This document shows, one piece after another, positions 3,867 to 32,752 of a DNA stretch of 64,000 nt. Made by a program: the position numbers and the translations under genes. Under the pieces are notes generated by a model. It made no database searches. It was not told the origin of the DNA and saw only the letters and a list, made by a program, of their open reading frames with translations. The stretch's first letter is position 1, and each line of letters starts with the position of its first letter. This DNA comes from a virus, in IMG/VR virus record IMGVR_UViG_3300045988_176633, one strand, 5' to 3'.

Positions 3867-4313
3867 TCATTTGTTTAAAATCAAATCTTCTATCAATGTC
3901 TTTGAGACTACACGTACTACACTATCCAACCTGAAACACCAATCATCCATAATTTTTTTAGCTCTTTCACCAGCATGACCATTATCATATGCCTCTACTA
4001 ATATACTTCTCTTATAAGATTTTATCTTACCATTTGATGTTTCGTCGAAATAATTACAATCACACTTGAAGAAAAATTTCTCTTTCCTTGTTTCTTCACT
4101 TAACAAGTACAAACCATCAATCTTTAAAAGATCTATAGGAAGTATATCAATATTGTTAGTTGTCAAATTGATACCCCATTTTGTAGCAAGAGCTTCAGCT
4201 TCTGTATAATTGACAGCTTCGATCAATACATGTCTGTGATAATTTTTCATTTTACCAGGACGAGGATCTTCTTCATCTTCGTCCCAATAATTTATTGTAC
4301 AATCAAAATACAT
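3867..4313 (-). CDS. hypothetical protein with an internal two-fold repeat
   Basis: RHVLIEAVNYTEAEALATKW and RSILVEAYDNGHAGERAKKIMDDW mark two similar halves. Confidence 0.5.
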   Translation of the reverse strand: MYFDCTINYWDEDEEDPRPGKMKNYHRHVLIEAVNYTEAEALATKWGINLTTNNIDILPIDLLKIDGLYLLSEETRKEKFFFKCDCNYFDETSNGKIKSYKRSILVEAYDNGHAGERAKKIMDDWCFRLDSVVRVVSKTLIEDLILNK

Positions 4314-4399: not shown

Positions 4400-4425
4400 G
4401 GTCCGACTAAATATTTAGTCGGACC
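4400..4425 (-). terminator. perfect 26-nt palindrome / stem-loop downstream of the dpdA-like gene
   Basis: ggtccgactaaat|atttagtcggacc is GC-rich arms in AT-rich DNA, 5 nt after the stop at 4431. The U-tract is weak. Confidence 0.4.
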
Positions 4426-4430
4426 AACAG

Positions 4431-5210
4431 TTAATGACAACATTTTTTCAAAAAAGATATATTTTTCTTTGCAAGTTCAATCTGTTTATCTGTCATACTA
4501 AGCTCAAAGTAATCCTTTGGAGTAGGATATCTTACGAATGGATCGTTTTCAAGGTCTAAATCATTGATTGCAGCTAAAATAGGATAGCAACTATCAGTTG
4601 ATCTCATATTCGAGAATCCTTTGTACATAAGAAACTCTCGACAATCACTCATACCTAAGCAATGATAGTTCTTTTTATAGATCAAAGGATACTTTTGTAA
4701 CTCATATACCATTATAATACGTGCGATATCGATATCACTATCCTTTTTCTTTATACCATATACATAAGGTATCGTCTTCTTCGATAAACCAATTGTCGTG
4801 ATTTCTTTAAACGTAGACATGGCAAACAACAATGATTTGTACTCTGAAACTGTCTGAGCTTGAGGACAAGCAAAGATACCTACACCTTCCATATTAGTTT
4901 TTTTCATCTTATTGATGAACCAAACTAGGTTTGAAACTGTTATACTTGAGTTATACAACTCATCTGTTGGAATCACTTCATTAGGAAGGATCTCCTGTGT
5001 TAACTCGAATAACTCCTCTTTTTGAATGATTTCACCTTCATCTCCAGCACCGTTGTCAAGTATCAAGAATCTACCTTGTTCTTTTGCCTTTTTAGTGTAC
5101 TCACGATATTCTGGATATTTTTTATACAATTGTGCTAAGATGTAGAAATTGTTGTCTCCTAATTCGCTCAATTCTAGGTAATTAAGAGGCGGTGTTACAA
5201 ATACTTCCAT
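4431..5210 (-). CDS. dpdA: DpdA-like DNA-guanine transglycosylase (TGT-family TIM barrel)
   Basis: LILDNGAGDEG resembles the TGT DSGG(F/Y)Q loop. HCLGMSDCRE resembles LMGVGxPxD. MRSTDSCYPILAA resembles FDCVxPTRxA. No Zn-site CxCxxC. Co-occurs with folE/queD/queE in the window. Confidence 0.55.
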   Translation of the reverse strand: MEVFVTPPLNYLELSELGDNNFYILAQLYKKYPEYREYTKKAKEQGRFLILDNGAGDEGEIIQKEELFELTQEILPNEVIPTDELYNSSITVSNLVWFINKMKKTNMEGVGIFACPQAQTVSEYKSLLFAMSTFKEITTIGLSKKTIPYVYGIKKKDSDIDIARIIMVYELQKYPLIYKKNYHCLGMSDCREFLMYKGFSNMRSTDSCYPILAAINDLDLENDPFVRYPTPKDYFELSMTDKQIELAKKNISFLKKCCH

Positions 5211-5211
5211 A

Positions 5212-6123
5212 TCAAACTATTTTTAAATTTTCATAATTGTCAATCAAAAATAAAATGAGTTCATCTAAACCAAGTTTTCTCTCCTGAAGTTCAACTTGTG
5301 TAAACGACAACAACTTATCTTTGTCAGCATTTCTTTTATCAAAACGTTCTCTTCTCTCTGTTGTCGTTGAATTTAGAAGGATCCTATCAATATTGATCAT
5401 ATACGGACCAAAAAATTTTTCAAAAGCTAAAAACAAACTTTTCTGTCTGATCCCCACGATATATACCGTATCTATCTCTGGATTAGATTCCAATTTTTTA
5501 ATGATAAAATTAAATATCGCTTGATCTAATGATTCTTGAAAGATCCTCTCTTCTTGTTTTTTCAAGATCCTCACCACTTCACCAATCTCAAATATGAAGG
5601 CTTTTTGGTTGAGTTTTTGAGAAGTCAGATCTTTGATTAAATTGTCAACGTAAGTTGTCTTGCCAGAACAAACCCTACCGAATACATAAGTCACATTCTT
5701 GATATTAGAAGGAAATTTTAACTTTTCTTCTTTTTTGTATTCAATATCGTCGTCACAATAACATTCTCCATCTTCAAGAGAGACTAAAGCATAATTTTCA
5801 TCATCTTCACTGACTTTCACACTATCAGCATGAAAAACAATCATCAAATCTTTAGCGATCATTTCGCAAGACATCTTGCGAAAATCCAATGCATTGAGTT
5901 CTTCTTGATAATATTTCGAGTGTAAATATTTAATCACTTCTCTTTTCAATAGAATGAATTCCTTATCTCTATTGTCATGTTTCACAGAGACTCTTACTTC
6001 GATATGAAACATATGTCTATGAGGGTACTCCAAGAACTTCACCGACAGACCATGTTTCTCGCTTGCATCTAAATAATAATGTACCCCTTCTACACTCAAC
6101 TTAACCCCTATAATCGTTTTCAT
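5212..6123 (-). CDS. fusion protein: QueD/PTPS-like T-fold domain plus a P-loop kinase-like domain
   Basis: N-terminal YPHRHMFHIEVRVSV resembles the QueD CxxxHGHxF(x)V motif but lacks the Cys. C-terminal Walker A is GRVCSGKTT. The ATG at 6123 is preferred over the track start at 6174, which overlaps the upstream gene. Confidence 0.5.
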   Translation of the reverse strand: MKTIIGVKLSVEGVHYYLDASEKHGLSVKFLEYPHRHMFHIEVRVSVKHDNRDKEFILLKREVIKYLHSKYYQEELNALDFRKMSCEMIAKDLMIVFHADSVKVSEDDENYALVSLEDGECYCDDDIEYKKEEKLKFPSNIKNVTYVFGRVCSGKTTYVDNLIKDLTSQKLNQKAFIFEIGEVVRILKKQEERIFQESLDQAIFNFIIKKLESNPEIDTVYIVGIRQKSLFLAFEKFFGPYMINIDRILLNSTTTERRERFDKRNADKDKLLSFTQVELQERKLGLDELILFLIDNYENLKIV

Positions 6124-6127: not shown

Positions 6128-6403
6128 TTAATTTTTAAATATAAAATCCTGGATATGACTCTTCTCTTCTTCAATAGAGATCTTAGGAAATTCTTCTTTC
6201 TTTAGAAGAAGTTTACGCATTCTTATACTGCGTATTGACCGAAATAATTCTTTAGGATTTACATCGTTAATATCAGTAACCGAATGTTCTCCTAGCTCTT
6301 GAAGAGCTTCTTCAATCGTTTCCAACGCTTCTTGTTCGTTACTATTTACATAGTCTTCGATAAACTCACGTAACGAAAGGCTTTTAATCTTTTTAATTTC
6401 CAT
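6128..6403 (-). CDS. hypothetical protein (91 aa)
   Basis: ATG ORF. No motif. Confidence 0.45.
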   Translation of the reverse strand: MEIKKIKSLSLREFIEDYVNSNEQEALETIEEALQELGEHSVTDINDVNPKELFRSIRSIRMRKLLLKKEEFPKISIEEEKSHIQDFIFKN

Positions 6404-6407: not shown

Positions 6408-6638
6408 TTAATAAGTTATTTTAAACCTGTTTTTAGCTCTTTCTTTCGAAATACCATACATCCTACAATAATCTTTCTTTTTCTTTTGAAGGATCGGGAA
6501 CGAACCTTCTGCAAGAACTTTTCCATCAAGTAATAATTTCCCGATCTTCTCTCCTCGAATGTTTGGATCTTTCTTCTTTATTGGAAGATCCCATTGATTC
6601 TTGTGATATACGAATCTCTTTAACTCTTCTTCCATCAT
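6408..6638 (-). CDS. hypothetical basic protein (76 aa)
   Basis: ATG ORF downstream of palindromic motif 1. Confidence 0.45.
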   Translation of the reverse strand: MMEEELKRFVYHKNQWDLPIKKKDPNIRGEKIGKLLLDGKVLAEGSFPILQKKKKDYCRMYGISKERAKNRFKITY

Positions 6639-6791: not shown

Positions 6792-9700
6792 TTAAATACT
6801 ACATTTTCCACCCATACATGCAGTAGCTACATCACTACCTGCATCTCTAATCTCATGTTCCCATCTAATAGATTGCCACTCGATTGATTCTTTGTTCTTA
6901 ATTTTTTGCCAAGTGTGAAAAATATTTACATGTTTTAAACAATTAGCACACAACTGTTCATTTCCATTGAAATAATTGATGGCAAATTTTTTAAACCTTC
7001 TTACCCAGTCTTTTCTCATATCGACTTTATGTTGCAAATAAGAAGAAATAGTGTTTACATCGCTTATATGAATACCATCTATATTCACTAGGAGTTTACC
7101 ATTCTCAAGATGTTTCTTGATAAAAGCTAGAAGGTACTCATCTGAAAACACCAAGAGATTGTCTGCACGTCCTTGTGCTGCATTACATGCAGTCCATATA
7201 TCTCCAAATACTTGTAATCCATCTACAATCAGACCAGACGAAAGAATAGCACCTTGACCATAAGTCTCAGCTAACTCTTTTTCATTTAAATAAGAGGTGT
7301 ATGGTGCTTGTGGATAATCTAAGTCACCGCTTTCTGGTAAAAAACTCAAACCACAGAATCCTTTCTTGTGATCCCATATCCAATCAGCGACTTTCTCCCA
7401 TTCGTCATCCTTAACAGAGACAGTGCAACTTACATTCATACGAATCTTAGGATTCTTTTTCGTAGAAGGATGATCCCAATTTGTACCATTCTCTATCCAA
7501 TTCATTTTAGTGGAATAGATTCTTTTTAAGAAATCTATTGTAGAGAAATCTACTCGTACCATTGTATTCTCATCTAGTTCCACAGGAAAAGAGATTACAC
7601 TTTCATTCTTGGGATTCCAAAATGATTTAGAGATTATTTCTGGATGAACCTTTTGAATCTCTTGAAGAGCTTGTTCGTTGTTGTTTGCTTGTATATTCCT
7701 GATATATTTCCGGAAATGATAGGCATGTATGCCAGATCCACAACCAAGTAATTGTGATGCATTGCCAGATGGTTTTATGACAGTTGTCCTAGCTGCTGGA
7801 TTGATTCCAATGATATCCGCTACTAATTGATTAGTCTTCTTAACTATTTCTGCACCATTTCTCTGAATAGTCTCGTTAAATAATATCGTAGGATTGTCTG
7901 CCATTCCTGTAATACCAACTCCAATCAAAGCATCTCTCTCAGCGATCTTCTTAGAAGTATTTGTCAAAACAGGGAAATCTGTATATGCTGCCTGAAATGT
8001 GCCTAATATAGCTGCTGCTTCACACGCTTTATAAAACTCTTCCTCTGTTTTAATACGTGCACCATTAATTTCACAAAGATTACAATAACCCCAACCATAT
8101 TCAATACTTCCATCTTCGTTCTCATATTTAGGGATCATCGATACCTCGCAATTGTGAACAACTACTCCTTCACTGTATAAGTAATTTTCTTCGCCTTTTG
8201 TGATAATTATGAAATTATGTTCTGGAGCTTCTACCGATATATCAAAGACTTCTTTTTCTTCTGTTAATGAAATAATATCAATTACACTAACATCGTCTTT
8301 TAAATAAGATTTATCTTCGATTGACTTTTCTACAATCTCTCTATGATCTATATGCTCTTGATATTCTTCAATCCCTAAAACAATCTTTTTAAATTTAGAC
8401 CAGGAACCATCGAATCTATTCTTTGAAAAATTCAAAGGAAAACGAGAATCTAATTCTATGCAATTCTTGCGAGTCAAAAGTAAACCCGAAGAAAGCACCT
8501 TCTTTCCTATCTCAATCAAATCCTTATTAGATAATCCCTTGAAATTATTATTTTTTTCAAGAGTTCCATTGATAGAACTGTTCAACTTCCTTCTTACTCT
8601 TTCTTCTTCTGTGAGTTTTTCAATTTGATTAGGATTATTGATTCCTTTACGTCTCTCAGAAGTCTTATTTAAATGATCTTCTCTTGATAAAAGTTGAAGA
8701 TTATCAATGAAATCTCCTCCATCATCATCGATATGATCGATTTCATAACCCTCTGGTTTTTGTCCATTCAAAAATTCCCATAACATTCTGTATTGTCTTG
8801 CGTGTCCATCTGAAAAACTATTGATCGTCCTGTATTTGACACTTTTTGTCGTAAAGAATTTTGACAACGTCAATCCTAGACTATCTTTCGCTTCAACCCA
8901 CCTTCCATCTTTAGTTAAAAGGTTGTGATCTTCTGTACATTCAAAACTACTTCCGTTAGAAAGAATTACTTTTATTGTTTTCTTGAAACCTCTTGAAAAA
9001 GCAATACCATTTGTGATCTTTATTTTTCCACTTTTGCTTTTATAAAAAAGTGGAAAAGGTTCATCTTCTTCTGAAAGCTCTTTTATACTTACAGCGTTTC
9101 TCCCGTCTGCTACAGCAACTAAAGTGTCTCCACTGAAACAACAAGGATTAAGCACTTGATCAGGATGAGAAAGGAAGATTATACCTGGCTCACCATATTC
9201 TTTAACATATTTCATGATCTTCAAATATTCCTCCTTTGGAGTGTCTTCAAAAATCACAGCAGAGTTGTTACATCGACATAACTCAGGATACATCTGAAAC
9301 CAATTCCCAGTCTTACAAGAGAGCATTTCAATATCATCGATATCAAACAAAGCAATCATTGCACTTCTTCTAATGCCACCACTAATTACTGCATCAGCTA
9401 TAATACATGTAATATAATGCAACTCAAAAGGTCTTAACTTTCTATTATTTACTTTATCTAAGATTGCCTTTATTTTAGAGTGACACACTTTTAACGGTTC
9501 TGGACCTGGTGCTTTAAAACCACCAGATATAAACGAACCTTCTGGTCTTATCTGTGAATAATCAAATTCAATGACAGGAAGGTTGTAGTAATAGTGTTCG
9601 ATTAACATACCAACTGATCGTGCCCATCCTTCAATAGAATCAGGTATTTCAAACACAACTTTTTTAGAAGAGTCTACACCTTTCATTACCGGAAGTTGTT

Positions 9701-10103
9701 CTGTGTGTACCTTTTGAACGGAATAACCAGTACCTTCTCCACTTAACAAAGACTCCATACACTCTTCAAAGAAAGCAACCCTATTTAAATAGGAAGACGT
9801 GCAATTGTATAATCTCAGATGATTTTTTAGAAGTTGTTCACCTCCATATTGAAGAGCTCTTTGAGAACCAAGTATCAATCTGTTTTCATATGCTGACCAA
9901 GCAGTATTGAATACTTTCAAAAAAGCCTCTCTTTTTTCTTCTGTAATCTTATTTTCAAAGAAAGACCAATGCATTTGCATAACTCTAGAAATAGACTCCT
10001 CCCAAGATTCTTTAGTACCATCCTCTTTTACACGAGAATATTTACTATAAAAGATGTAATCACTGATTATATTGCGACTATCAACTCGTTCTTCTTCTAA
10101 CAT
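6792..10103 (-). CDS. nrdJ: class II (adenosylcobalamin-dependent) ribonucleotide reductase, intein-containing precursor
   Basis: N-terminal YSKYSR...ESWEE...RV. Thiyl-radical loop NPC|..|CEV is split by the intein. Also has TVIKPSGNASQL and a C-terminal CMGGKC redox pair. Length is 773 aa once the 330-aa intein is removed. Confidence 0.8.
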   Translation of the reverse strand: MLEEERVDSRNIISDYIFYSKYSRVKEDGTKESWEESISRVMQMHWSFFENKITEEKREAFLKVFNTAWSAYENRLILGSQRALQYGGEQLLKNHLRLYNCTSSYLNRVAFFEECMESLLSGEGTGYSVQKVHTEQLPVMKGVDSSKKVVFEIPDSIEGWARSVGMLIEHYYYNLPVIEFDYSQIRPEGSFISGGFKAPGPEPLKVCHSKIKAILDKVNNRKLRPFELHYITCIIADAVISGGIRRSAMIALFDIDDIEMLSCKTGNWFQMYPELCRCNNSAVIFEDTPKEEYLKIMKYVKEYGEPGIIFLSHPDQVLNPCCFSGDTLVAVADGRNAVSIKELSEEDEPFPLFYKSKSGKIKITNGIAFSRGFKKTIKVILSNGSSFECTEDHNLLTKDGRWVEAKDSLGLTLSKFFTTKSVKYRTINSFSDGHARQYRMLWEFLNGQKPEGYEIDHIDDDGGDFIDNLQLLSREDHLNKTSERRKGINNPNQIEKLTEEERVRRKLNSSINGTLEKNNNFKGLSNKDLIEIGKKVLSSGLLLTRKNCIELDSRFPLNFSKNRFDGSWSKFKKIVLGIEEYQEHIDHREIVEKSIEDKSYLKDDVSVIDIISLTEEKEVFDISVEAPEHNFIIITKGEENYLYSEGVVVHNCEVSMIPKYENEDGSIEYGWGYCNLCEINGARIKTEEEFYKACEAAAILGTFQAAYTDFPVLTNTSKKIAERDALIGVGITGMADNPTILFNETIQRNGAEIVKKTNQLVADIIGINPAARTTVIKPSGNASQLLGCGSGIHAYHFRKYIRNIQANNNEQALQEIQKVHPEIISKSFWNPKNESVISFPVELDENTMVRVDFSTIDFLKRIYSTKMNWIENGTNWDHPSTKKNPKIRMNVSCTVSVKDDEWEKVADWIWDHKKGFCGLSFLPESGDLDYPQAPYTSYLNEKELAETYGQGAILSSGLIVDGLQVFGDIWTACNAAQGRADNLLVFSDEYLLAFIKKHLENGKLLVNIDGIHISDVNTISSYLQHKVDMRKDWVRRFKKFAINYFNGNEQLCANCLKHVNIFHTWQKIKNKESIEWQSIRWEHEIRDAGSDVATACMGGKCSI
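8151..9140 (-). mobile_element. HNH-endonuclease-type intein (330 aa) in the NrdJ active-site loop
   Basis: Starts CFSGDTLVAV (block A) and ends VVVHN followed by +1 Cys. Internal HNH motif is EIDHIDDDGGDFIDNLQLLSREDHLNK. Boundaries were checked codon by codon. Confidence 0.85.
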
Positions 10104-10107
10104 AAAA

Positions 10108-10446
10108 CTAATCTTTTGGTAAAATTAAACATATCGGCACAGCAGGCCAAGATAACACAAGTGCTAAATTGTCTTTCTGTGCTAAATTATATCTATCAAT
10201 AATAGCATTAAAGATACTTCTTTTTATGTATAATTCCATAGGCTTAGGTTTGTAATTCTTATCTTTTTGAAGAGATAATTTTTGAATCTGCATATATATT
10301 GAAAGAGCTTCTTCACAAGGAAGAATAGGTTCTAATTCTTCGATCTTATTAGCATTTAAAAGAGTAACCCTAACTTGTTTATATTCTACCCCAAGAAATT
10401 TCTCCTTGGGGATTGGAATATATAATTTTGCTTTCTTCTGTTTCAT
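10108..10446 (-). CDS. hypothetical protein (112 aa)
   Basis: ATG ORF. No motif. Confidence 0.45.
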   Translation of the reverse strand: MKQKKAKLYIPIPKEKFLGVEYKQVRVTLLNANKIEELEPILPCEEALSIYMQIQKLSLQKDKNYKPKPMELYIKRSIFNAIIDRYNLAQKDNLALVLSWPAVPICLILPKD

Positions 10447-10455
10447 AAATCTATA

Positions 10456-11091
10456 TTAAAAAGAACGGAATAAAACATGAAGTAAAACACATGGACCTTC
10501 AAGTTTAAATAATCTACCATCTATTGTTGAATAAAGAAGATTATTTAAACTAATAATTAATTGACCTTTCTTAATTATCATTCGTTTACCTGTACGAAAA
10601 TCTCTTGCCTCACAATTTCGTGATATTATATAACCACGACAATCAATTTCGTTTTTATTCTTTTTCATATTTATAATTTGATTTATTTTATTGTTGTACA
10701 ATTCGTTATACTCTTCTCTTGTCAACTGACGTGCATTATCTGGCATTATATCTTTAAAAACATCCGGAATATCACCTTGGTGCCAACAATTGTTAGACGT
10801 AAGAAGTATCTTTTTATTTCCTTCTGTTTTCTCAAAATACAACCGTCTACCTCCACAACCCAAACCCCAACCAGTACCAACTTTTTTCACTTCTTCTCCT
10901 AATATCCAACTAGAACCGTCTACTCGAATCCATCGAGGATTATCTTTATTTTCATTGTAAAGATTTTGCCAAAAAGAACAATAATAACACCAATCATTCT
11001 TTTCCATTATATCACGAATAGGACAATTCACGTATTTAGTAGGATCTACGTTCTCTTCGCTTCCACATTTTAAGCAAACTTTCTTTTCCAT
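10456..11091 (-). CDS. hypothetical protein with an N-terminal Cys cluster
   Basis: CLKCGS...C....CYYC looks like a zinc ribbon. Family not recognised. Confidence 0.5.
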   Translation of the reverse strand: MEKKVCLKCGSEENVDPTKYVNCPIRDIMEKNDWCYYCSFWQNLYNENKDNPRWIRVDGSSWILGEEVKKVGTGWGLGCGGRRLYFEKTEGNKKILLTSNNCWHQGDIPDVFKDIMPDNARQLTREEYNELYNNKINQIINMKKNKNEIDCRGYIISRNCEARDFRTGKRMIIKKGQLIISLNNLLYSTIDGRLFKLEGPCVLLHVLFRSF

Positions 11092-15243: not shown

Positions 15244-17166
15244 TTATTTTAAATTATCCAACAAACCTTCAAAACCATCCTTTGTAAAGATAGGAATCTT
15301 TAATTCTTGAGCTCTCTGCATCTTAGATGATGTACCAGACAAATCTTTTACAACCAAATGAGTTGTATTGCCAGAAACTCCACTTGCTACTTTATGACCA
15401 AGATTAATCAATCTTTGCTCTAATTCTTTATCTCGGAAACCTGTGAAACATACATTCATTTGTTGATCAGCAGGAACGATTTTCACTAAACTCCTAAAAT
15501 AAGCTATATTGATAGAATCAGGTTCAAGATCCCTAAACACCTCTATCCCATTGTTGAAAACTTTAGCTGTTTTCTCTGCCACTCCTTTTATGCATAACAA
15601 ATGTTCGATAGGTACTGGCTCAAGATCCTTAACGCAATTCAAAGCTGTATCTGACATATTATCTAAGATCATTTGACATGTCTTTTCAGCCATCACCCCA
15701 TTGAAAACATTGTTAGCCGTCAATAACTTCGCAAAACCAACACCTTTGGTTTTATAACCATCAAACTGAGAACTTAATTTCTCAGCTAAAGAGATACCAA
15801 TACCTTCGATTTGTATCATTTCTTCTTTACTCAAAGAAAGGATAGATCGTTTCGTAGTATATCCTGCCTCATAAAACTTGGTGATCGTTGGTTCTCTGAA
15901 TTCTTCAGTACCAAGCACTGAAAAGAAAAAGACAAGTTCTGCAATTTTAGAAGCGTAACACGCTTCGTTTGTACAGATTAATTCTGTGAAAGTCTCATCC
16001 CATTTCAATTGCTTACCACAAGCTGGACAAACCATCATATCATCGCACATAATCTTAAAACTTTCACTATTGTATTTGATGGTTTTAAGGTGTTTAGGAA
16101 TCACATCACCACTTCTTGCTATAGTTACCATAGCACCTTTACAGATGTTGTTATCACAAATATATTTAGCGTTATGTCCAGTCGCACGACATACAGTAGC
16201 TCCACATAAATCAATAGGATCGACGATAATAACTGGCTTAGCCTTTTTATCCTTTGAAATTTTCCATTCTATATCAACGACTTTTGTATCAGCTCTTTCA
16301 GACCATTCTGGATTCTTATAAGCTATTGAATACCTAGGATTCATGTTAGGTAATCTACCTAATTCCTTTCTGACCTTAGCATCATTCAATTCAATGACCA
16401 AACCATCGCACTTATATTCTTGCGACATTTTCTCAAACATACGATCTAAAAGCTCTCGAACTTTTTCTTGAGGATTTAAAAAGTTAGCTCCCGCTAATAA
16501 ACACCAATTTGCTACTTTTTTAAAGTGATGTTCCAAATAAACAAACTGATCACTTTTATCCATCGTTTCATCGTCGAGACCATATCTTATATAACTCACA
16601 TTTCTCAAAAGAAGAGATGGTGTAGGAGAGTTGAATAAACCTGCGACACAATTTCGAGCTGATTTATAATCCCCTTTATTTCTTAAAAAGGATTCTTTAG
16701 AAAAAATAGCCTCACCAAATGTATAGCGAAAAGGCATCTTCTCTGAATCAACAATTTTTTCAACCATCAACTTTTTATGACCGTCACTTCGTTGACCTTC
16801 AACACCGTCACCACGAGTCCAAGCTGCACCAGTTTTCTCTTCACAACACAAAGAAATGCCATCATATTTAGGTGTGATGATAATTTCAGTTGTAGAAGTA
16901 ATCTTCCAAGTATTTTTCATGAATTCGATCAATTCATCGATTTTTTTGAATTTTTCAAGACTATACATTGGAATAGGAAGTCTCTCCATTCGATCAGATG
17001 ATTCAATCTCCTCAATGATCGCTTTTTTCAAGAGTTTATTTTCAGGATCTTTTGTTTTTAACTCTTCTACTAAAAGATCATACTCCTCATCGCTTATAAG
17101 AGGTTCTCCTCGTCTATAAGCATCGTTATACTCCTTTATTAATTGTACTAGTGTCGCTGTTTTCAT
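15244..17166 (-). CDS. ligA: NAD-dependent DNA ligase
   Basis: Adenylation motif KYDGISL, an OB-fold region, a Cys4 zinc finger (CPACGKQL...CTNEAC), HhH repeats and a C-terminal BRCT-like domain FTGFRDKELEQRL. Confidence 0.9.
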   Translation of the reverse strand: MKTATLVQLIKEYNDAYRRGEPLISDEEYDLLVEELKTKDPENKLLKKAIIEEIESSDRMERLPIPMYSLEKFKKIDELIEFMKNTWKITSTTEIIITPKYDGISLCCEEKTGAAWTRGDGVEGQRSDGHKKLMVEKIVDSEKMPFRYTFGEAIFSKESFLRNKGDYKSARNCVAGLFNSPTPSLLLRNVSYIRYGLDDETMDKSDQFVYLEHHFKKVANWCLLAGANFLNPQEKVRELLDRMFEKMSQEYKCDGLVIELNDAKVRKELGRLPNMNPRYSIAYKNPEWSERADTKVVDIEWKISKDKKAKPVIIVDPIDLCGATVCRATGHNAKYICDNNICKGAMVTIARSGDVIPKHLKTIKYNSESFKIMCDDMMVCPACGKQLKWDETFTELICTNEACYASKIAELVFFFSVLGTEEFREPTITKFYEAGYTTKRSILSLSKEEMIQIEGIGISLAEKLSSQFDGYKTKGVGFAKLLTANNVFNGVMAEKTCQMILDNMSDTALNCVKDLEPVPIEHLLCIKGVAEKTAKVFNNGIEVFRDLEPDSINIAYFRSLVKIVPADQQMNVCFTGFRDKELEQRLINLGHKVASGVSGNTTHLVVKDLSGTSSKMQRAQELKIPIFTKDGFEGLLDNLK

Positions 17167-17728
17167 TTCTATTAAATTTTGATAGTTCGGCTCTTAGATT
17201 TTCAATCTTATCACATTTCGTAATCGAAGTTTCTTTATCTTTGTAAAGTTCTAAAAAGACTTTATAAGCCTCTGGAAACTGCTCTTCTAATTGTTTAGAA
17301 GTATTGATATACTCTAAAGCACATTGACATTTATTCTTCAAGGTTCTTCTCTCTTTTTGGAGAGATTCGATTTTCTTCAAGAACTTACTTGCGCTTGAAA
17401 AATATTTATCTTGATGCAAAACATCTTTTAAATCAAATATTCCTTCGATATAATCAATTGTAAGATTTACAATTGCATAATCTACTAGCTTAACACCAAA
17501 ACCTCCGAAGAGACTAGAATCTCCAAGATAAAGAGATTTTTTAACTGAAAGAGCATGTGGATATAATATATGAAATTCCCAGACTTTTTGACCGATTTCT
17601 TGTTTTATAATTTCTGAGATAAAATCACCAAAAATTTTTAACTCCTCGCTTATTTCTTTCTGAATAGGCTTGAGAAGTCCTTTAACTATATCTTCTCTAT
17701 CAGAGTTATTTAATCTTATACTTTTCAT
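17126..17728 (-). CDS. hypothetical protein (200 aa)
   Basis: ATG ORF. Overlaps the ligA start by 41 nt. No motif. Confidence 0.45.
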   Translation of the reverse strand: MKSIRLNNSDREDIVKGLLKPIQKEISEELKIFGDFISEIIKQEIGQKVWEFHILYPHALSVKKSLYLGDSSLFGGFGVKLVDYAIVNLTIDYIEGIFDLKDVLHQDKYFSSASKFLKKIESLQKERRTLKNKCQCALEYINTSKQLEEQFPEAYKVFLELYKDKETSITKCDKIENLRAELSKFNRNENSDTSTINKGV

Positions 17729-19597: not shown

Positions 19598-20098
19598 TTA
19601 CAATTTTTTTCTTCGTGCATATTCAGCGATTAACAAACCATCAAAATCCGTATGATAATTAGAGTCTAATGTAGGAAATAACCTACATCCTATATCATGA
19701 GATGCTTTCTTCAACTCTTCAGAACCTTTGATACCTTTAGGTAGGAGTTCCTTTTGCCATTCTTTAGAATCTATGAATTGATAAGGTAAATTTAACATCT
19801 CAAGTGTTATTAATGTAGCTTCTAATGCTCTTAAAGCAGATGTAGTTGCAACAAAACGTGTAGGATTAACCATTGGTCTTTCTACTAAGACAAATGGAAT
19901 TATATCTTCTCCTTTCTGATAAAGTTCAAGTTCCTCCTTCAAGAGTACTCCGTTAATTCTTGTAATATTTTTTTTGGCTTTTGTATAATCCTGCTGTTTA
20001 ATGATAGGAGTTTTCCAAAAGCTAACCTCTGATTTATCTTCGGCTATTATACCAATAGATCCTGTCACACCATTGTCAATTCCAATATAATATCTCAT
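19598..20098 (-). CDS. RuvC-like Holliday junction resolvase
   Basis: N-terminal YIGIDNGVTGSIGII (RNase H-fold first Asp). C-terminal DGLLIAEYARR resembles the RuvC DAxAIA motif. Confidence 0.6.
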   Translation of the reverse strand: MRYYIGIDNGVTGSIGIIAEDKSEVSFWKTPIIKQQDYTKAKKNITRINGVLLKEELELYQKGEDIIPFVLVERPMVNPTRFVATTSALRALEATLITLEMLNLPYQFIDSKEWQKELLPKGIKGSEELKKASHDIGCRLFPTLDSNYHTDFDGLLIAEYARRKKL

Positions 20099-23000
20099 TG
20101 TGATACAATTTTACTTACACCATCTTTTTTACGAATTCTCAGAACTTTACATTTTTCCAAATAGGATCCATCTAATACATGAGTAGTAACTAACACTGGG
20201 AATTTCAACATTGAATCCAATGCTTCTACCATATCAAATAGACCTTCTTTAGAAAGACCTTCAGTTACTTCATCAAATGATATAAATTCTAGACCACCGT
20301 ATGGATTCGTAGAATTAATCATTTGTTGAAATGCTATAATCGTAGCAACTTCTACTTTCGCTCTTTCACCACCACTATAATACCAGAACGACTCAGCTTC
20401 GTCTCGAATGACATAAGGAGTGATTTCATCTTTTCGATTCCCTTTAGAATCTTGTTTGAAAGCCTCAACGATTAAACGAAGGTCACTGTTTTCTTTTTCT
20501 AGGATCTTATTCGCTCTATTTTGTATATTTTTGACTTGTTCTGCAGCAAGATACATCTTGAAATCCTTAAATCGATTGACCCATCGATCTTTTTCAATCA
20601 CTTGCACAGAAAGCTCATCGACCTCCTTTTGTTTGGATTCGATTTGCTCCTGAAAAAGACTTATATCTTTATTCAGACTATCGATCAATGATTGATTGAT
20701 TTCGCTTTTTGTTTCACGAACTTCTTCGATCTTTTCCTTTAAAGAAGAAATCTTTTGATTTTCTTCTGAGATCTTTTGATTCAAACTATCAATTTCTAAG
20801 ATCTTACTCTTTTTAATCCTTTCTTTTTCAAAAACTGTGGTTTCTAATTCAGAGATCCTTTTTTTGATTTTCCTTGTTGAATCTAGTATAGAATTGATAC
20901 TATCTTCTGCTTCACTTTTAAGACCAAAAAGTTCGGTTAATACTTCTTCGTATTCTATGAGCTCCTTATTCACTTCTTCTTCAGAATGAATACAATCTTT
21001 CTCTTCTTCTCCTAACTTCTTCTTCTTTTTCTCTTCTTCCTCTAAAGTCGTATCTTTTAACGTTAAGAACTTATACTTACATTTTGGACAAGTTATAGTT
21101 CCAGACAAATTGATAAGGATTACTCTCAATTGTTTCCTAATCTCGCCTCTTTTCGCTTCAATTATCTCTTGTTTTTCTAACAAGATCTTTTGACCTTCAT
21201 TTGTTTTAGCTAGTTCTTCTTTGATCAACTTCAAGTTTTCCTCCTCTTCTTCAATAGAAGGGATCTTTTCTAATTCTAAATTAGTTACAGAAATCATTTT
21301 TTTAGAACTCTTTATTTCTTTATCTAATTTAGAATTTTGTTCTTCAAGAAAATTCCTCTTTTTCTCCCAAGAATCAATGATATCGTATTTTTCGTTTATC
21401 TCTTTCTCAAGAGCACTAATCCTTATTTCTTTCTCTTTTTCAAAATCACGACTTGTCTCTTTGTCAATGTTCTGCATTTGAACTTCTAATTTACCCTGTA
21501 AAGAGTAAATATCGTTTTCCAATAAACGTTTTTCAGCGTTTAATTTTGTTATCTCTTTAGAAATAATATCTTTTACACCATCCAACTTATTAAAGTTGAT
21601 AAACCGTGAAATCAATGCTAAACGATCTATATTAGATGCTTTAAAGAAAGATTTATAGTATTCCTTACAAATGATAAAATAGTTCCTCAAATCTTCGGCA
21701 CTGATACCGATCCATTTTAAAATAAAATCATTCCCATCTTTAACAGTGGCATAAGATACATCCTTATCATTGATCTTAATGGTTAATTTACTACTGGATT
21801 TCAACGGAAGTACCCTATCGATATACAATGTTTCGTTTCTCATGGGACACCATATTTCAATATGAGTCCTAGCTTCTTTTTCTCCTCTTCGAATCAACTT
21901 TTTATCCGACGATCCTCTTAGACTACTTCCTATTAAAGAGTAATAAAAGATCTGTTGGATTGAAGAATTGTGGGTAACAACAAAATTGTTAGTCAAGAAA
22001 AGACCATCTTTATTAGAGACTTCAATACACTGCATTTCTTTTTTACCAACGTATTCAATCGATACGATTCTTCGATTAATACAATTCATCTTTTTTCCTT
22101 GTAAAGATCTTTCTTTTTTTCTACTTAAATGAAAAAGATTTAAACCTTTAGGTGGTACAATTCTTAAACGATAATGATCCTTACATTCAATATATTGACC
22201 ATCTTTTTTATAACCAGATTTCATCTTCGTTATTTTATGACAAAGACATCCGAGACTTCGAGCGACAAAAGCTACATCTTCAATAAGTTGCTTCGAAATT
22301 AAAGCGAGTTCGATCAAACCCTTTTTATCAACATACCCATCGGTATCTAAAATCCCTCGCAACAACTCTAATCGTATTTCACGATCATTAAAAATATAAT
22401 CTTTAGGAATGAATTTAGTCTCTGAATCTTGAAGATATAAATTGTATGTTTTCAACAAAGTCATCATCGAATCACAATCGTTATCCTTACTTCCTTGAAT
22501 TCTATAATTACAATTATTTTGTTTCTTCAAATATAAACCTTGAGGAAGTTTATCTTGAAACCTATTTAGAATCTCATCGTCCTTTGAAGTAAAAAGAATT
22601 GTTCGACTTTGACTATAGTAAGATTTTGAATAACCTTTAATTTTACATCCCAATGTTCCATCTCCAAGTAGACAGCCCAAAACATATGGATCGATTAAAA
22701 TATCTTTGTGATTATATTCTATCTTTTCTACAGTTGGTATCCTATATCGATAAGGTTTGCTTGTCCCACAATCACATCGAATAGATTGTTTCATTATATC
22801 TTTCAAATTTACAACTTTCCAATTTTGTGGAGTGTAACAACTAGCAACTTTCCAAAGATGCTCATCGTTACATTCAACTTCTGTGCCGTCGTTGAAAGTA
22901 ATCCTATAACAATCAATAATCCCTTGTGGAGCTGTAGCAACGACACTTTGTTCTTTTCCATTGAAACCTAGAATTTTATCTCCTATTTTTATATCTCTCA

Positions 23001-23184
23001 TCTTAATTGATCCTGTTATAGTCATAATATCAGAATCAAGAGAAAGAGCTTTACCACTACCATTTGAACCTTGGTCTTCTTCTGTGAGATTTTCACCGAC
23101 CAAAGTTACAACCCTATCCTCGAATTCATAATCGAAATCTTTGAACGATAGGAAGTTACTCGCTGTCATCCTTATTGGTTTCAT
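20095..23184 (-). CDS. sbcC: SbcC/Rad50-like recombination ATPase, intein-containing precursor
   Basis: Walker A GSNGSGK|..|SS is split by the intein. Long coiled coils with a CPKC zinc hook. Signature YSGGERAK and Walker B FISFDEV. Confidence 0.8.
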   Translation of the reverse strand: MKPIRMTASNFLSFKDFDYEFEDRVVTLVGENLTEEDQGSNGSGKALSLDSDIMTITGSIKMRDIKIGDKILGFNGKEQSVVATAPQGIIDCYRITFNDGTEVECNDEHLWKVASCYTPQNWKVVNLKDIMKQSIRCDCGTSKPYRYRIPTVEKIEYNHKDILIDPYVLGCLLGDGTLGCKIKGYSKSYYSQSRTILFTSKDDEILNRFQDKLPQGLYLKKQNNCNYRIQGSKDNDCDSMMTLLKTYNLYLQDSETKFIPKDYIFNDREIRLELLRGILDTDGYVDKKGLIELALISKQLIEDVAFVARSLGCLCHKITKMKSGYKKDGQYIECKDHYRLRIVPPKGLNLFHLSRKKERSLQGKKMNCINRRIVSIEYVGKKEMQCIEVSNKDGLFLTNNFVVTHNSSIQQIFYYSLIGSSLRGSSDKKLIRRGEKEARTHIEIWCPMRNETLYIDRVLPLKSSSKLTIKINDKDVSYATVKDGNDFILKWIGISAEDLRNYFIICKEYYKSFFKASNIDRLALISRFINFNKLDGVKDIISKEITKLNAEKRLLENDIYSLQGKLEVQMQNIDKETSRDFEKEKEIRISALEKEINEKYDIIDSWEKKRNFLEEQNSKLDKEIKSSKKMISVTNLELEKIPSIEEEEENLKLIKEELAKTNEGQKILLEKQEIIEAKRGEIRKQLRVILINLSGTITCPKCKYKFLTLKDTTLEEEEKKKKKLGEEEKDCIHSEEEVNKELIEYEEVLTELFGLKSEAEDSINSILDSTRKIKKRISELETTVFEKERIKKSKILEIDSLNQKISEENQKISSLKEKIEEVRETKSEINQSLIDSLNKDISLFQEQIESKQKEVDELSVQVIEKDRWVNRFKDFKMYLAAEQVKNIQNRANKILEKENSDLRLIVEAFKQDSKGNRKDEITPYVIRDEAESFWYYSGGERAKVEVATIIAFQQMINSTNPYGGLEFISFDEVTEGLSKEGLFDMVEALDSMLKFPVLVTTHVLDGSYLEKCKVLRIRKKDGVSKIVSQ
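21967..23049 (-). mobile_element. class 3-type intein (361 aa, Ala1) with a LAGLIDADG endonuclease, in the SbcC P-loop
   Basis: Starts ALSLDSDIMT and ends VVTHN followed by +1 Ser. Block B is GTEVECNDEHLW (W at B:12). Block F is EMQCIEV (Cys at F:4). Thr precedes HN. LAGLIDADG motifs are YVLGCLLGDGTL and LLRGILDTDGYV. Confidence 0.8.
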
Positions 23185-27491: not shown

Positions 27492-29507
27492 TTAGACAAT
27501 GTTTAATTGTATGATTTCACTACAATCCATGATAGTAATTGTGTTCTTCTTTTTCCAGGAATCAAACCTCACACAACCGTTTAAAACCAACAAAGTTTTT
27601 TTAGAATTGAGGAGAATGTCCCTTCTTTCTTTCCAGTAATCTGGGAAAAACACCACTTCTATGAAATCATAGTTATTTTCTAGGGTTATCTTAGCATATT
27701 GACCTTTTTTCGAAGACATTTCATCGATATTCAAAACATAACCACCTACCATAACATGATTCGTGTAATGATCAACGATATCTTCATCTTGTATCTGTTT
27801 ACCATCAACAAAATACGGCGTTCCCAATCCTCCATCTGTCACAATAGGAGAGAGGTATTTGTTAACTAAGTATTTATAATCAAAGAAACAGAACCCTGAT
27901 TTTCGTTTTTGTTGCAATAACCACCACCACTCTTGATCTTTTTTCCCTTTATCTTTAGCAATACTATACTCATCCTTCTTCTCATCTATCTTGATATTTT
28001 TCTTTTCTCGATAATTAAGAAGAAGTCTTTCTCGATCAGTTACCTTTTTAATTCCTTCAATAGAATCAAATGCACCACTATAAATCAGATTTTCAACCAC
28101 AGATTTGTTAATTGAAGAACCTTTTTTATTAAATCTGTCGATAAATTCATCAAAAGAAAAATACTCACCATTTTTAGTTCTTTCTTCCATCAATTCTTGT
28201 TGAGCTACATCGCCAAGTTGAGAAACCGAATTGAAAGCCCAGTAAATACTATTACTTTTTACATCAGAAACGATATTGGCTCCTGATTGATTTATATCTA
28301 CAGATTTGATCTGTATATTACCACTTCTCCTGATTTCATTTATATAGTAAGGATAGTCTTCTGCTTTAGCACGACTAAAAGTTACCGACCAGAATTCAAT
28401 CGGATAATGTACTTTCAACCATAGGGAATTGTATCCATTTATTGAATAAGATACAGAATGTGATTTGTTAAATAGATAGGAGGAGGCTTTTACAATTTCT
28501 TCCCAGAAATCTTTGGCATATTCTTCTGTCACTTTATATCTATCACAGTAACCCTTTATAAATTGACCTTCCAAAGATTTGATAACATCAATCTTCTTCT
28601 TACCCATCGCTTTACGAGCTGTGTCACATGTAACAAGATCCATACCTGCTAATTCATGCATAAGAGCCATAACTTGTTCTTGATATACAAACAATCCATA
28701 GGTGCTATTTAATATCTTCTCAGTACCCACATGATAAGTACACTCTCTTTCTCCTGCCTTCCTTAACAAATATTCTTCATGATAACCATTTTCCATGACA
28801 CCTGGACGATATAACGCTGCACAGTCACTCAACTCATCGACACTTGTTGGTTGCATCTTCACACAATAGGAAGATAAACCTTTAGCTCCAAAGTGGAAAA
28901 CATCTCCTAAGAATCCTCTTTGGAAAAAATCAAAGACCTTTGGATCGTCCTTTGGAATCTTATACAAATCGATCCTTTTACCATAATGTTCTTCAATTAG
29001 ATTTAAAATATCCGTAAACTTATCAAGTTGCTCAATTCCTAAAATATCCTCTTTTAAGAAACCTGCTTCATCTAATTCAAGACCTTCCCACTCACTTACA
29101 ATCAATCCTTTTTGACTTCTTACCGGACACCATTCATACAAGGTCTTTTCGTCAGGAAATATCATCATAGCACAAGCATGTATCGAAGAAGTCTTTGGTT
29201 GACCAAGTGATAACATCAAACAATTAAACATTTCTGCATGATCGTTTAGAAATTTCTTGACTTCTTCATATTTACAAGCTGTCTTAAAAAAATCTTCAAT
29301 AGTCTTGACTTTTTCTGTCTCTAAGATCTTGCAAATCCTACGGACCAATGGAATTGGAATTTTCTCTAGTCTTGCGAAATCTTGTATCGCTGCTTTTAAT
29401 TGTAGGGTACCATAAGTACCTACAGAACAAACTTGATCAATACCAAAACGTTGTTCCATATACTCTTTTACACGAGGCCTGGCTTCGCCAGGGAAATCTG
29501 TATCAAT
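27492..29507 (-). CDS. dnaE: DNA polymerase III alpha-type (DnaE) replicase, proposed exon 2
   Basis: The track ORF starts at M (29459), but the frame is open back to 29507. There it encodes IDTDFPGEARPRVKEY, the catalytic Asp motif PDIDxDF, directly after a UAG. Downstream QRFG..VCSVGTYGTLQLKAAIQDFARL is the DnaE palm/fingers. Confidence 0.75.
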   Translation of the reverse strand: MDTDFPGEARPRVKEYMEQRFGIDQVCSVGTYGTLQLKAAIQDFARLEKIPIPLVRRICKILETEKVKTIEDFFKTACKYEEVKKFLNDHAEMFNCLMLSLGQPKTSSIHACAMMIFPDEKTLYEWCPVRSQKGLIVSEWEGLELDEAGFLKEDILGIEQLDKFTDILNLIEEHYGKRIDLYKIPKDDPKVFDFFQRGFLGDVFHFGAKGLSSYCVKMQPTSVDELSDCAALYRPGVMENGYHEEYLLRKAGERECTYHVGTEKILNSTYGLFVYQEQVMALMHELAGMDLVTCDTARKAMGKKKIDVIKSLEGQFIKGYCDRYKVTEEYAKDFWEEIVKASSYLFNKSHSVSYSINGYNSLWLKVHYPIEFWSVTFSRAKAEDYPYYINEIRRSGNIQIKSVDINQSGANIVSDVKSNSIYWAFNSVSQLGDVAQQELMEERTKNGEYFSFDEFIDRFNKKGSSINKSVVENLIYSGAFDSIEGIKKVTDRERLLLNYREKKNIKIDEKKDEYSIAKDKGKKDQEWWWLLQQKRKSGFCFFDYKYLVNKYLSPIVTDGGLGTPYFVDGKQIQDEDIVDHYTNHVMVGGYVLNIDEMSSKKGQYAKITLENNYDFIEVVFFPDYWKERRDILLNSKKTLLVLNGCVRFDSWKKKNTITIMDCSEIIQLNIV

Positions 29508-32072: not shown

Positions 32073-32085
32073 ACGATTAAAAATT

Positions 32086-32128
32086 AAAAAGGGTCCCAAG
32101 TCCATTTTTGGACAACAGGACCCTTTTT
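32086..32128 (-). terminator. intrinsic terminator (11-bp outer stem with an inner hairpin)
   Basis: aaaaagggtcc ... ggacccttttt. Followed on the - strand by TTTTTAATTTTT. Lies after the stop at 32153. Confidence 0.65.
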
Positions 32129-32152: not shown

Positions 32153-32752
32153 TTATTCAGTGACTTCTTTCTGTTCCACATCAAAGTACTTTGAGATAAC
32201 CTTGTCAACAACAGAAAAATAAGTACCAACTTTTTTCGCTACTTGATAACAAGACTCATTACTTGTCAACAATTCATCATAAGCCTTGCTAGATTTATCA
32301 CCAAGTTTCTCCGGCTTTTCGCCTTTAGGCTTGTAAGTGAAGATTGTTTTTACACGAGGCTGTTTCTCTTTCTTCTGAGCTTTTTTAGCTTCACGTTCAG
32401 CCTTTTTCTTAGCCTTTTCTTCTTCTTTTGCTTTCTTAGCGGCTTCTTTTTCAACACGCTTTTCTGCAGCTAACTCTTTTTTAGTCTTCTTCTTTTCACC
32501 CGTTGGTTTTAGATCTGCTGCTTCTTCTGCGCTAATCTCTTCGACTTCACCAGCTTCTTCTTTTTCAGCGACAATAGCCTTTTCTTCTTCTTTTGCTTCT
32601 TCAGCAGCTACTTCGACAACAGTACTTTCTCCTTCTTTCTTTTCAGATTCCATCTTGTCGATCATTTCCACTAACTCTTGTTTGGAATATTTTCCATAAT
32701 CTTGGATTCCTAAACTCTCAGCTTTTCTACGCAATTCTAATAAAGATGCCAT
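32153..32752 (-). CDS. HeH/Rho-N-like domain protein with a Lys/Glu-rich tail
   Basis: N-terminal LLELRRKAESLGIQDYGKYSKQELVEMI (Rho_N/SAP-like helix-extended-helix), then a KE/AK low-complexity region. Confidence 0.5.
   Translation of the reverse strand: MASLLELRRKAESLGIQDYGKYSKQELVEMIDKMESEKKEGESTVVEVAAEEAKEEEKAIVAEKEEAGEVEEISAEEAADLKPTGEKKKTKKELAAEKRVEKEAAKKAKEEEKAKKKAEREAKKAQKKEKQPRVKTIFTYKPKGEKPEKLGDKSSKAYDELLTSNESCYQVAKKVGTYFSVVDKVISKYFDVEQKEVTE

Follow-up and report, generated by a model that had tools for sequence, protein, structure and literature searches.

We have analysed a 64-kb stretch of viral DNA (IMG/VR record IMGVR_UViG_3300045988_176633, called the window below, with coordinates counted over the whole stretch) that carries two adjacent genes related to those by which certain phages place 7-deazaguanines in their DNA. 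One encodes DpdA3, a small guanine transglycosylase, and the other, located directly upstream, encodes a fusion of a QueD-like domain (DpdL) with a P-loop domain of the nucleoside-monophosphate (NMP) kinase fold. All genes of the locus lie on the minus strand. The elements of the locus are as follows.

4400..4425, minus strand: perfect 26-nt palindrome, 5 nt past the dpdA3 stop codon
4431..5210, minus strand: dpdA3, a minimal guanine transglycosylase of the tRNA-guanine transglycosylase (TGT) fold, 259 amino acids, no zinc subdomain
5212..5718, minus strand: P-loop domain of the fusion gene (residues 136-303 plus the stop codon), NMP-kinase fold, homologous to CGPG_00066 of Cellulophaga phage phiST
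5719..5769, minus strand: flexible linker of the fusion (residues 119-135), predicted local distance difference test score (pLDDT) <50
5770..6123, minus strand: DpdL domain of the fusion gene (residues 1-118), QueD-like T-fold, proposed 7-carboxy-7-deazaguanine decarboxylase

The gene pair and the folds of its products

Read from the ATG at 6123, the fusion gene (5212..6123) encodes 303 residues. The mechanical open reading frame (ORF) extends back to a TTG at 6174, and we prefer the ATG because the homologues begin at MKT. A single base separates the TGA stop codon of the fusion gene (5212-5214) from the ATG of dpdA3 (5210), and we propose that the kinase-bearing fusion is translationally coupled to DpdA3. 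Two small ORFs (6128..6403 and 6408..6638) lie upstream of the fusion gene with 4-nt gaps and, together with the fusion gene and dpdA3, look like one operon ending at a hairpin. Among the palindromes of the window, the one at the operon end alone is long, perfect and GC-armed; it folds as RNA with -19.2 kcal/mol (z = -6.0), which none of 200 shuffled sequences equalled. The terminator scan did not call it as an intrinsic terminator because it has no U-tract, and it is probably an RNA hairpin serving as terminator or stabiliser at the end of the operon. The homologues of both proteins number from dozens to thousands, with E-values down to 1e-180, so that the gene pair cannot be a product of chance. 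A first-pass annotation, made from the letters alone, had described these ORFs, their motifs, the 1-nt spacing and the palindrome, and all of them lie on the minus strand where it had placed them.

Related loci were searched with hidden Markov models (HMMs) that we built for each of the three modules, DpdL, the P-loop domain and DpdA3. In tblastn searches of phage genomes, DpdA3 is 38% identical to CGPG_00065 of phiST (E 6e-48, 99% of the length), 43% identical to a protein of Chryseobacterium phage MA9V-3 and about 25% identical to those of Campylobacter phage CP220 and Flavobacterium phage immuto (gp206, a "DNA guanine transglycosylase"). The proteins of phiST, CP220 and immuto are the founders of the DpdA3 subfamily (PMC10516641), and our family HMM matches them at 1e-103, 1e-24 and 5e-30, respectively. 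DpdA3 also matches PHROG 20335 at 3.5e-52. The AlphaFold2 (AF2) model, built with 44 homologues, reaches a pLDDT of 95.8, and the best 36 Foldseek matches in the PDB are all TGTs (E 3.7e-6 to 9e-5, probability 1.0, template-modelling (TM) score 0.46-0.62). The TGT-family membership suggested by the first-pass annotation is thus borne out and narrowed to the DpdA3 subfamily.

The protein carries the motifs LDNGAGDEG (residues 50-58), HCLGMSD (183-189) and STDSCYPILAA (204-214), and D52 (LDNG), Q117, H183, L185, G186 and D206 (TDSC) are invariant in the 44 homologues. D52, Q117, L185-G186 and D206 follow one another in the order of D89, Q187, G245 and D264 of E. coli Tgt, a correspondence of sequence order only, with a spacing from G to D of 20 residues versus 19. 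As reference motifs of Tgt we take the DSGG-type Asp, the nucleophile Asp of the F-D-C motif, Q-G and L/M-G-x-G. The hhalign comparison of the DpdA3 family with the single E. coli Tgt sequence was not significant (probability 0.55%), with sensibly aligned motifs, and the family profile found no TGT among the PDB sequences. We relied on Foldseek for the fold identities because the single-sequence hhalign comparisons were not significant. For the phiST orthologue, HHpred has given 98.8% to PF01702 (PMC10516641).

The CxCxxC zinc motif is absent from the 259-residue protein, and C208 is the sole conserved Cys of the family. The first-pass annotation had regarded the missing zinc site as expected for a DpdA. 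This does not hold, since the crystal-structure report on bacterial DpdA (PMC10164549) describes a CXCX2CX22H zinc site and its conservation across the DpdA family. The loss of the site is a peculiarity of the minimal, stripped-down DpdA3 barrel. The isoelectric point, considered as a clue to DNA binding, proved uninformative: it is 5.5 for DpdA3 of the window and 6.0 as the family median, and E. coli Tgt likewise has 6.0.

As for the fusion protein, tblastn matches its first ~115 residues to phiST CGPG_00067 (DpdL) and its last ~160 residues to CGPG_00066, which are two adjacent, separate genes in phiST. The DpdL HMM scores 4.6e-42 for phiST and 7e-57 for the window, and the domain matches PHROG 17812 at 1.4e-30. 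DpdL is defined by LxxxHRHxF in place of the CxxxHGH of QueD and is a candidate 7-carboxy-7-deazaguanine (CDG) decarboxylase (PMC10516641). The signature reads L31-E-Y-P-H35-R36-H37-M-F39 in the window, overlapping the His-motif stretch at residues 33-45 (YPHRHMFHIEVRV), and L31, H35, R36, H37 and F39 are invariant in 16 fusion homologues. The invariant residues of the domain comprise E12, G13, H15, H35, R36, H37, E55, S85, C86, E87, E106, D107 and E109. Where the QueD of the window has its Cys (CSHSIHGH), the fusion has Leu (LEYPHRH). The AF2 model of the fusion (pLDDT 84) shows two folded domains and a disordered stretch at residues 119-135, the linker, which differs in length and sequence between the fusion homologues. 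Foldseek matches the N-terminal domain to E. coli QueD (4ntk, 4ntm and 4ntn; E 2.7e-5 to 5e-5, TM score ~0.6 relative to the target). The hhalign comparison of the DpdL family with the single QueD sequence of the window was not significant (0.43%), and the DpdL family profile found no QueD among the PDB sequences. The first-pass description of a QueD-like T-fold that lacks the Cys of the bona fide QueD (36560..37177), where it precedes the His motif (C..HGH), agrees with the Foldseek match and the residues at this position.

A separate observation concerns metagenomic proteins (P0243, P0253, P0302 and also P0073) in which DpdL is fused to another C-terminal domain of ~150-230 residues. P0243 and P0253 carry the motifs WSGxExE, CPDV, HIMLDI and DTIKVE in this domain, P0302 being more divergent, and the domain has no Pfam match.

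The C-terminal domain of the fusion bears the Walker A motif GRVCSGKTT (residues 149-157). Its invariant residues are G149, S153, G154, K155, G224, R226, Q227 and G285, including the whole of G-x-R226-Q227, and conservation reaches 90% or more for R193, in a V-R block, and for R257. In the profile search against the PDB, the sole significant match is SSO1041, an adenylate-kinase-related protein from Sulfolobus (3lw7/3h0k, E 4e-6), with GdiVR aligned to DvVRK, GiRQ to DGvR, and a C-terminal L-G in common. By analogy with adenylate kinases, which also have lid Arg residues, we tentatively take the V-R and G-x-R-Q blocks to correspond to the NMP-site Arg motifs (G-D-x-x-R after strand 2 and D-G-x-x-R after strand 3). 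Foldseek places the domain closest to UMP/CMP kinase (5ukd, 2e-6), adenylate kinases and 3lw7, which is titled as AMP-bound, with weaker matches to nucleoside and polynucleotide kinases; the structure matches in BFVD are adenylate/UMP-CMP, deoxynucleoside and polynucleotide kinases. The domain matches PHROG 19196 at 1.2e-14. NCBIfam gave only sub-threshold matches, to adenylate, (d)CMP and dephospho-CoA kinases and Pnkp, and the single-sequence PDB searches of the proteins returned noise (SH3 domains, pyridoxal kinase). The nearest UniProt homologue is named only "AAA domain protein". The kinase-like module with a Walker A motif noted in the first-pass annotation is, by profile and Foldseek, a P-loop domain of the NMP-kinase fold, which is built on a five-stranded parallel sheet. 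On these grounds we are highly confident that ORF 4431..5210 encodes a TGT-fold DpdA3 and that the fusion consists of DpdL and an NMP-kinase-fold domain.

Conservation of the three-gene unit and the genes around it

Scanning IMG/VR with the DpdA3 alignment yielded 80 loci of 32-99% identity, and the following counts use the 76 that have at least 1.5 kb upstream. DpdL is present in 75 of them. The first-pass annotation had named the co-occurrence of the fusion with dpdA as a check. The P-loop kinase turned up in 72 of the 76 loci, either as an extension of dpdL or lying between it and dpdA3; it is part of a fusion in 37 and a separate gene in 34. The frames of the P-loop protein and DpdA3 usually abut or overlap (median gap 0 nt). 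The order dpdL, P-loop gene, dpdA3 recurs in phiST, MA9V-3, three metagenomic contigs with a T4-type Gp23 capsid gene and further metagenomic contigs. The full-length fusion occurs in ~45 clusters of a representative library at 50% identity, and the fusion with DpdL recurs across several gene arrangements. Phages that encode DpdL without DpdA3, namely Acidovorax phage ACP17 and Synechococcus phage BUCT-ZZ01, have no such kinase nearby; the kinase therefore tracks the combination of DpdL and DpdA3. The 2023 paper stated that homologues of CGPG_00066 are not encoded by other deazaguanine phages and set the protein aside (PMC10516641). In the loci compiled here, the kinase is a core, nearly constant third partner of DpdL and DpdA3.

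MazG-like genes stand beside dpdL or dpdA3 in phiST, immuto and several IMG/VR loci, and the deazaguanine cluster of L006 includes a dUTPase-fold gene. Guanine-type phosphoribosyltransferases occur in 13 loci: L006, L009 (immuto gp211), L015 (BUCT-ZZ01), L044, L045, L057, L066, L071, L075, L077, L088, L089 and L095. L044, L045 and L057 have a phosphoribosyltransferase instead of the kinase and, upstream of dpdL, a protein of ~280-290 residues with a CPCS motif, which we read from its sequence as a putative FolE2-type cyclohydrolase. A further candidate for a kinase homologue was gp055 of CP220, an HD::P-loop protein encoded beside DpdA3 (hhalign 93%); we dropped it because it is 51% identical in Fletcherviruses without DpdA3 and is annotated as Pnkp-like.

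The other pathway genes of the window lie at a distance of 27-31 kb from the dpdL-kinase/dpdA3 pair and are listed here together with the gene directly downstream of dpdA3.

3867..4313, minus strand: DUF4494 gene, directly downstream of dpdA3 (Pfam DUF4494 at 1.2e-14)
33260..33841, minus strand: AAA_28 kinase-like gene (Pfam AAA_28 at 3e-8; PHROG 2107, thymidylate kinase, at 2e-15; 27% identity to immuto gp203, E 2e-8)
33810..34346, minus strand: MazG-like nucleotide pyrophosphohydrolase (PHROG 229 at 7e-16; 35% identity to phiST CGPG_00068, E 5e-26 by BLASTP)
34352..35149, minus strand: HNH homing endonuclease between folE and mazG (PHROG endonuclease/HNH at 8.5e-23; tblastn matches to HNH of many phages)
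35146..35766, minus strand: folE, GTP cyclohydrolase I (Pfam PF01227 at 7.7e-50)
35770..36573, minus strand: queE, CDG synthase (Pfam Radical_SAM; PHROG 2076, QueE-like, at 3e-44; phmmer to phiST QueE 2.8e-41)
36560..37177, minus strand: queD, CPH4 synthase (Pfam PTPS at 4e-21; PHROG 2389; C..HGH)

Each of the seven members of the phiST cluster (QueD-QueE-FolE-MazG-DpdL-ATPase-DpdA3) thus has a counterpart in the window, and since the complete set is distributed over two loci, we regard it as a split phiST-type system. Neither QueC, QueF or another tailoring enzyme nor a phosphoribosyltransferase was found among the ~45 window ORFs scanned, the window covering about two-thirds of a genome of ~100 kb. 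The window belongs to a large tailed phage, whose genes include those for a baseplate wedge, TerL, DnaB, a split PolIII-alpha-like polymerase, NAD ligase and RecA, and near-identical fusion proteins are encoded on metagenomic contigs of 96-101 kb. A crAss-like phage, suggested partly by the HNH matches, was considered and rejected on account of the baseplate wedge, DnaB, split polymerase and RecA, and of MA9V-3 and phiST being the closest isolates.

The HNH gene is a mobile insert and not a pathway enzyme. In MA9V-3 (L002, 11461..12342) and several metagenomic proteins (P0070, P0236, P0254), DpdL also carries an in-frame N-terminal fusion to an HNH domain; HNH homing endonucleases repeatedly land in deazaguanine pathway genes. 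The AAA_28 kinase-like protein possibly belongs to the pathway, its relative gp203 lying within the deazaguanine cluster of immuto. It represents a second P-loop family (Pfam AAA_28, "thymidylate kinase"), found at 33260..33841 by mazG in the window, at 10412..10936 by dpdN in immuto (L009) and at 9798..10340 directly after dpdA3 in CP220 (L008). All three proteins share a block of the form V/I-D/S-D-G-x-R (FYFPIYWDSVDDGER, YFPIEFASVDDGVR and FYIRPEFDLVSDGVR, respectively), and the closest phage relatives of the family are in Streptomyces phages. L003 has the DUF4494 gene at the same place after dpdA3, as do 33 of the 80 IMG/VR loci, the closer relatives of the window, and a small DUF4494 gene is annotated inside the immuto deazaguanine cluster (L009, 7963..8160). 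The recurrence may reflect a real association, or it may be coincidental among Bacteroidota phages.

The operon adjoins a ribonucleotide reductase gene. This ribonucleotide-reductase-like gene (6792..10103, minus strand; 1103 residues, with a homologue of 1109 residues in L003) lies just upstream and contains an intein-like insert (CFSGDTLV...VVHNC) with an HNH-type endonuclease inside (HIDDDGGD...HLNKT). Elsewhere in the window, the large terminase (40571..43366, minus strand, 931 residues) and an SbcC-like protein (20095..23184, minus strand, 1029 residues) have segments of ~370 residues that both match PHROGs 19299, 36964 and 15, which suggests that one and the same mobile insert or intein sits in both of these unrelated genes. 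The PolIII-alpha-like polymerase (PHROG 405; 27492..32105, minus strand) is divided into an N-terminal part (30435..32105) and a C-terminal part (27492..29459), with an ORF of 303 residues and no family match between them (29573..30484); the split may stem from insertion of a homing endonuclease or intron. A protein of 200 residues (17126..17728, minus strand) has a weak, sub-threshold match to the "nucleotide modification associated domain 5" family of Pfam (Nmad5; E 1e-4, 22.9 versus 27 bits), and two neighbouring genes (32153..32752 and 32766..33161, both minus strand) each encode an N-terminal Rho_N domain.

A possible role for the kinase domain

From homology, folds, motifs, gene order and co-occurrence, we infer the enzymatic activities, the product and the substrate of the kinase as follows. 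In our preferred explanation, to which we assign a probability of roughly 0.55, the gene pair is the downstream half of a split phiST-type system that replaces G with 7-deazaguanine, with the kinase acting in the nucleotide pool. FolE, QueD and QueE (35146..37177) would convert GTP to CDG, and the DpdL domain, which retains the metal-binding His residues and has Leu for the catalytic Cys, would decarboxylate CDG to 7-deazaguanine. DpdA3, a barrel with two invariant Asp residues, would swap guanine for the deazapurine on deoxyribose. The C-terminal domain of the fusion would phosphorylate a guanine-type NMP, which could be 7-deaza-(d)GMP destined for the triphosphate or GMP derived from the released guanine, and the kinase and the MazG-like pyrophosphohydrolase would tie the pathway to the nucleotide pool.

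The phage DNA probably carries a 7-deazaguanine-type modification, and we consider 2'-deoxy-7-deazaguanine (dDG) the likeliest because in phiST DNA dDG replaces all G, amounting to 302,000 per million nucleotides, and dG gives no peak (PMC10516641). The fold, the blocks aligned with SSO1041, the DpdL fusion and the coupling with DpdA3 also lead us to favour, on balance, a kinase that acts on a nucleotide of this pathway. The guess in the first-pass annotation that the fusion protein acts on a deazapurine base or nucleotide fits this evidence, the activity itself being a prediction.

Two versions fit. In version (a), the kinase would lift 7-deaza-(d)GMP to the diphosphate, the polymerase would insert the modified base and MazG would remove dGTP; 7-deaza-dGTP is a good polymerase substrate. 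The full replacement of G in DpdA3 phages and the loss of the zinc subdomain in DpdA3 are consistent with this version, and it would also suit the ADG nucleoside reported from the cytoplasm of cells infected with CP220, which PMC10516641 cites from other work. In version (b), the kinase would be a GMP kinase through which guanine set free by DpdA3 returns to GTP, from which CDG is made. Both versions can accommodate the phosphoribosyltransferases of related loci. An attempt to reconstitute dDG in E. coli was limited to dpdL and dpdA and failed, and its authors noted that other enzymes may be required (PMC10516641); the absence of the kinase may explain this failure, which would suit version (a).

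A more far-reaching idea, which we regard as tentative and rather doubtful, is that DpdA3 phages build their fully substituted genomes through the nucleotide pool and not on finished DNA. A MazG-like enzyme would then hydrolyse dGTP to dGMP, the zinc-less DpdA3 would swap guanine for the deazapurine on the mononucleotide, or, in certain relatives, the base would be attached by a phosphoribosyltransferase, and the DpdL-linked kinase would make the 7-deaza diphosphate, after which the phage polymerase would incorporate 7-deaza-dGTP. If true, this route would provide the first small-molecule substrate for the TGT superfamily. In the published view, base insertion is post-replicative (PMC10516641).

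Several points weigh against our explanation. The kinase is missing in 4 of the 76 IMG/VR loci, and CP220 and immuto, which have DpdA3 and fully substituted genomes, are without this kinase family. To our knowledge, the known TGT-family enzymes all act on polynucleotides. The kinase fold is also near that of polynucleotide kinases (T4 Pnk 1ly1, TM score 0.67), and the only Pfam matches of the fusion protein, to P-loop families, stay below the cut-off (AAA_33, 18.1 versus 27 bits; AAA_18, 14.9 versus 29.4 bits). DpdA3 gave no match to Pfam at E <= 1 with hmmscan, TGT included, so that the comparison with PF01702 recommended in the first-pass annotation came back empty. The decarboxylase role of DpdL is a published proposal only, and the activities of DpdL, DpdA3 and the kinase are all predicted. 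Since QueC could be checked for in only part of the window, a product other than dDG is possible.

The alternatives assign the fusion or its P-loop domain a different task. Bacterial DpdA reportedly needs the ATPase DpdB for preQ0 insertion, and the P-loop domain could be the counterpart of DpdB, an ATPase partner for base exchange by DpdA3 in double-stranded DNA after replication. We take DpdB to be a ParB-like protein and not a P-loop kinase, which counts against the analogy. The P-loop gene, nearly always immediately upstream of dpdA3 or overlapping it, would be well placed for such a partner, DpdA3 alone could not be made to work in E. coli, and insertion is thought to follow replication (PMC10516641). 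However, the domain has a P-loop kinase fold by Foldseek and is not ParB-like, even if a functional analogy may hold, and it aligns block by block with SSO1041 (3lw7, AMP-bound by its title), its invariant G-x-R-Q standing opposite D-G-x-R. Its fusion is to DpdL and not to DpdA3, and the MazG-like and phosphoribosyltransferase neighbours would be left unexplained, all of which makes an ATPase partner unlikely. The T-fold domain, for its part, might not be a CDG decarboxylase, the T-fold/kinase protein making another deazapurine or a pterin and the final base not being dDG. The activity of DpdL is only proposed and the reconstitution in E. coli failed, and T-fold enzymes are catalytically promiscuous, as PMC10516641 cites from earlier work. 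The absence of QueC covers only part of the genome, and DpdL is elsewhere fused to a different C-terminal domain. Against this stand the complete orthology with phiST, whose product was chemically identified as dDG (PMC10516641), and the lack of QueC, QueF or a tailoring enzyme among the ~45 window ORFs scanned; we consider a different product quite improbable.

We give still less credence to a general (d)NMP kinase or housekeeping enzyme that is co-located through clustering of nucleotide genes and fused to DpdL without functional meaning. Phages often encode dNMP kinases, the operon lies beside the ribonucleotide reductase gene, and gp055, beside DpdA3 in CP220, turned out to be Pnkp-like and present in Fletcherviruses without DpdA3. 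A bystander would hardly keep the same place in 72 of 76 loci, on phage backbones that share only 32-50% DpdA3 identity, recur as a DpdL fusion in several gene arrangements and be absent where DpdL lacks DpdA3. The least credible of the alternatives is a polynucleotide 5'-kinase acting on DNA or RNA ends, for example in the repair of nicks from base exchange, in spite of the Foldseek matches to the kinase domains of T4 Pnk (1ly1) and Clostridium Pnkp (4gp6) and a weak NCBIfam match of the phiST orthologue to bacterial Pnkp (E 2e-4, far below the cut-off). The AMP-binding adenylate-kinase-like protein is the sole significant match in the PDB profile search, where Pnkp reaches E 0.45, and no ligase or phosphatase partner accompanies the gene. 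T4 Pnk-type hydroxyl kinases presumably have their catalytic Asp at the position before the V-R block, a position that is variable in the present family (E, D, Q, N, K, G, S).

Relation to known systems

DpdA3 and DpdL, as well as the phiST-type system, are already known (PMC10516641), and the literature searched contained nothing later than this 2023 paper on DpdL, DpdA3 or a pathway kinase. The first-pass annotation had called its gene pair no part of the textbook pathway. This does not apply to the T-fold paralogue and the transglycosylase, which were named in 2023, and it holds for the kinase module and the fusion. New, and undescribed in the literature searched, are above all the conserved kinase, and in addition the fusion and the split cluster. 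Full replacement of G by a 7-deazaguanine, as in DpdA3 phages, defeats restriction enzymes. The kinase is a concrete candidate for the missing part of dDG synthesis, and its role bears on whether modification precedes or follows replication of these genomes. An enzymatic route that yields fully 7-deaza-G DNA or 7-deaza-dGTP would also be useful, 7-deaza-dGTP being common in PCR and sequencing.

The closest known system is the phiST cluster (PMC10516641). Homologues of all its genes occur in the window (MazG, DpdL, the P-loop protein and DpdA3 are each 35-38% identical), the order of dpdL, P-loop gene and dpdA3 agrees, and so does the LxxxHRHxF signature of DpdL. FolE, QueD and QueE are co-encoded with DpdA3 in the window, as they are in the DpdA3 subfamily. 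Unlike in phiST, where DpdL and the P-loop protein are two genes, they form one polypeptide with a flexible linker here; the cluster is divided between two loci ~27 kb apart, a homing endonuclease lies between folE and mazG, and an extra AAA_28 gene follows mazG. The P-loop protein of phiST was treated as unrelated to the pathway (PMC10516641). The bacterial Dpd system (DpdA and DpdB) resembles the window in combining a TGT-fold exchange of guanine for a 7-deazaguanine with an NTP-using partner protein. Bacterial DpdA is larger, with zinc ligands at residues 368-395 and four insertions (PMC10164549), whereas DpdA3 of the window has 259 residues and no zinc motif. The bacterial enzyme modifies <0.1% of G, while the genomes of DpdA3 phages are fully substituted (PMC10516641). 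SSO1041/UPF0200 (3lw7, 3h0k), the sole significant profile match of the kinase domain in the PDB, is an archaeal stand-alone protein with only ~19% identity to it.

Among the pre-replicative phage pathways that replace one base completely, T4 makes hydroxymethyl-C with the dCTPase gp56, the dCMP hydroxymethylase gp42 and the dNMP kinase gp1, and the Z-genome set consists of MazZ, PurZ and DatZ. Unlike in these pathways, no enzyme of the window is known to make a modified mononucleotide, its base-exchange family being known from polynucleotide substrates, and the kinase is not detectably of the T4 gp1 family. The T4 and Z-genome pathways share the logic suggested for the window, in which a pyrophosphohydrolase for the canonical nucleotide, a maker of the modified monophosphate and a dedicated NMP kinase act together to replace one base fully.

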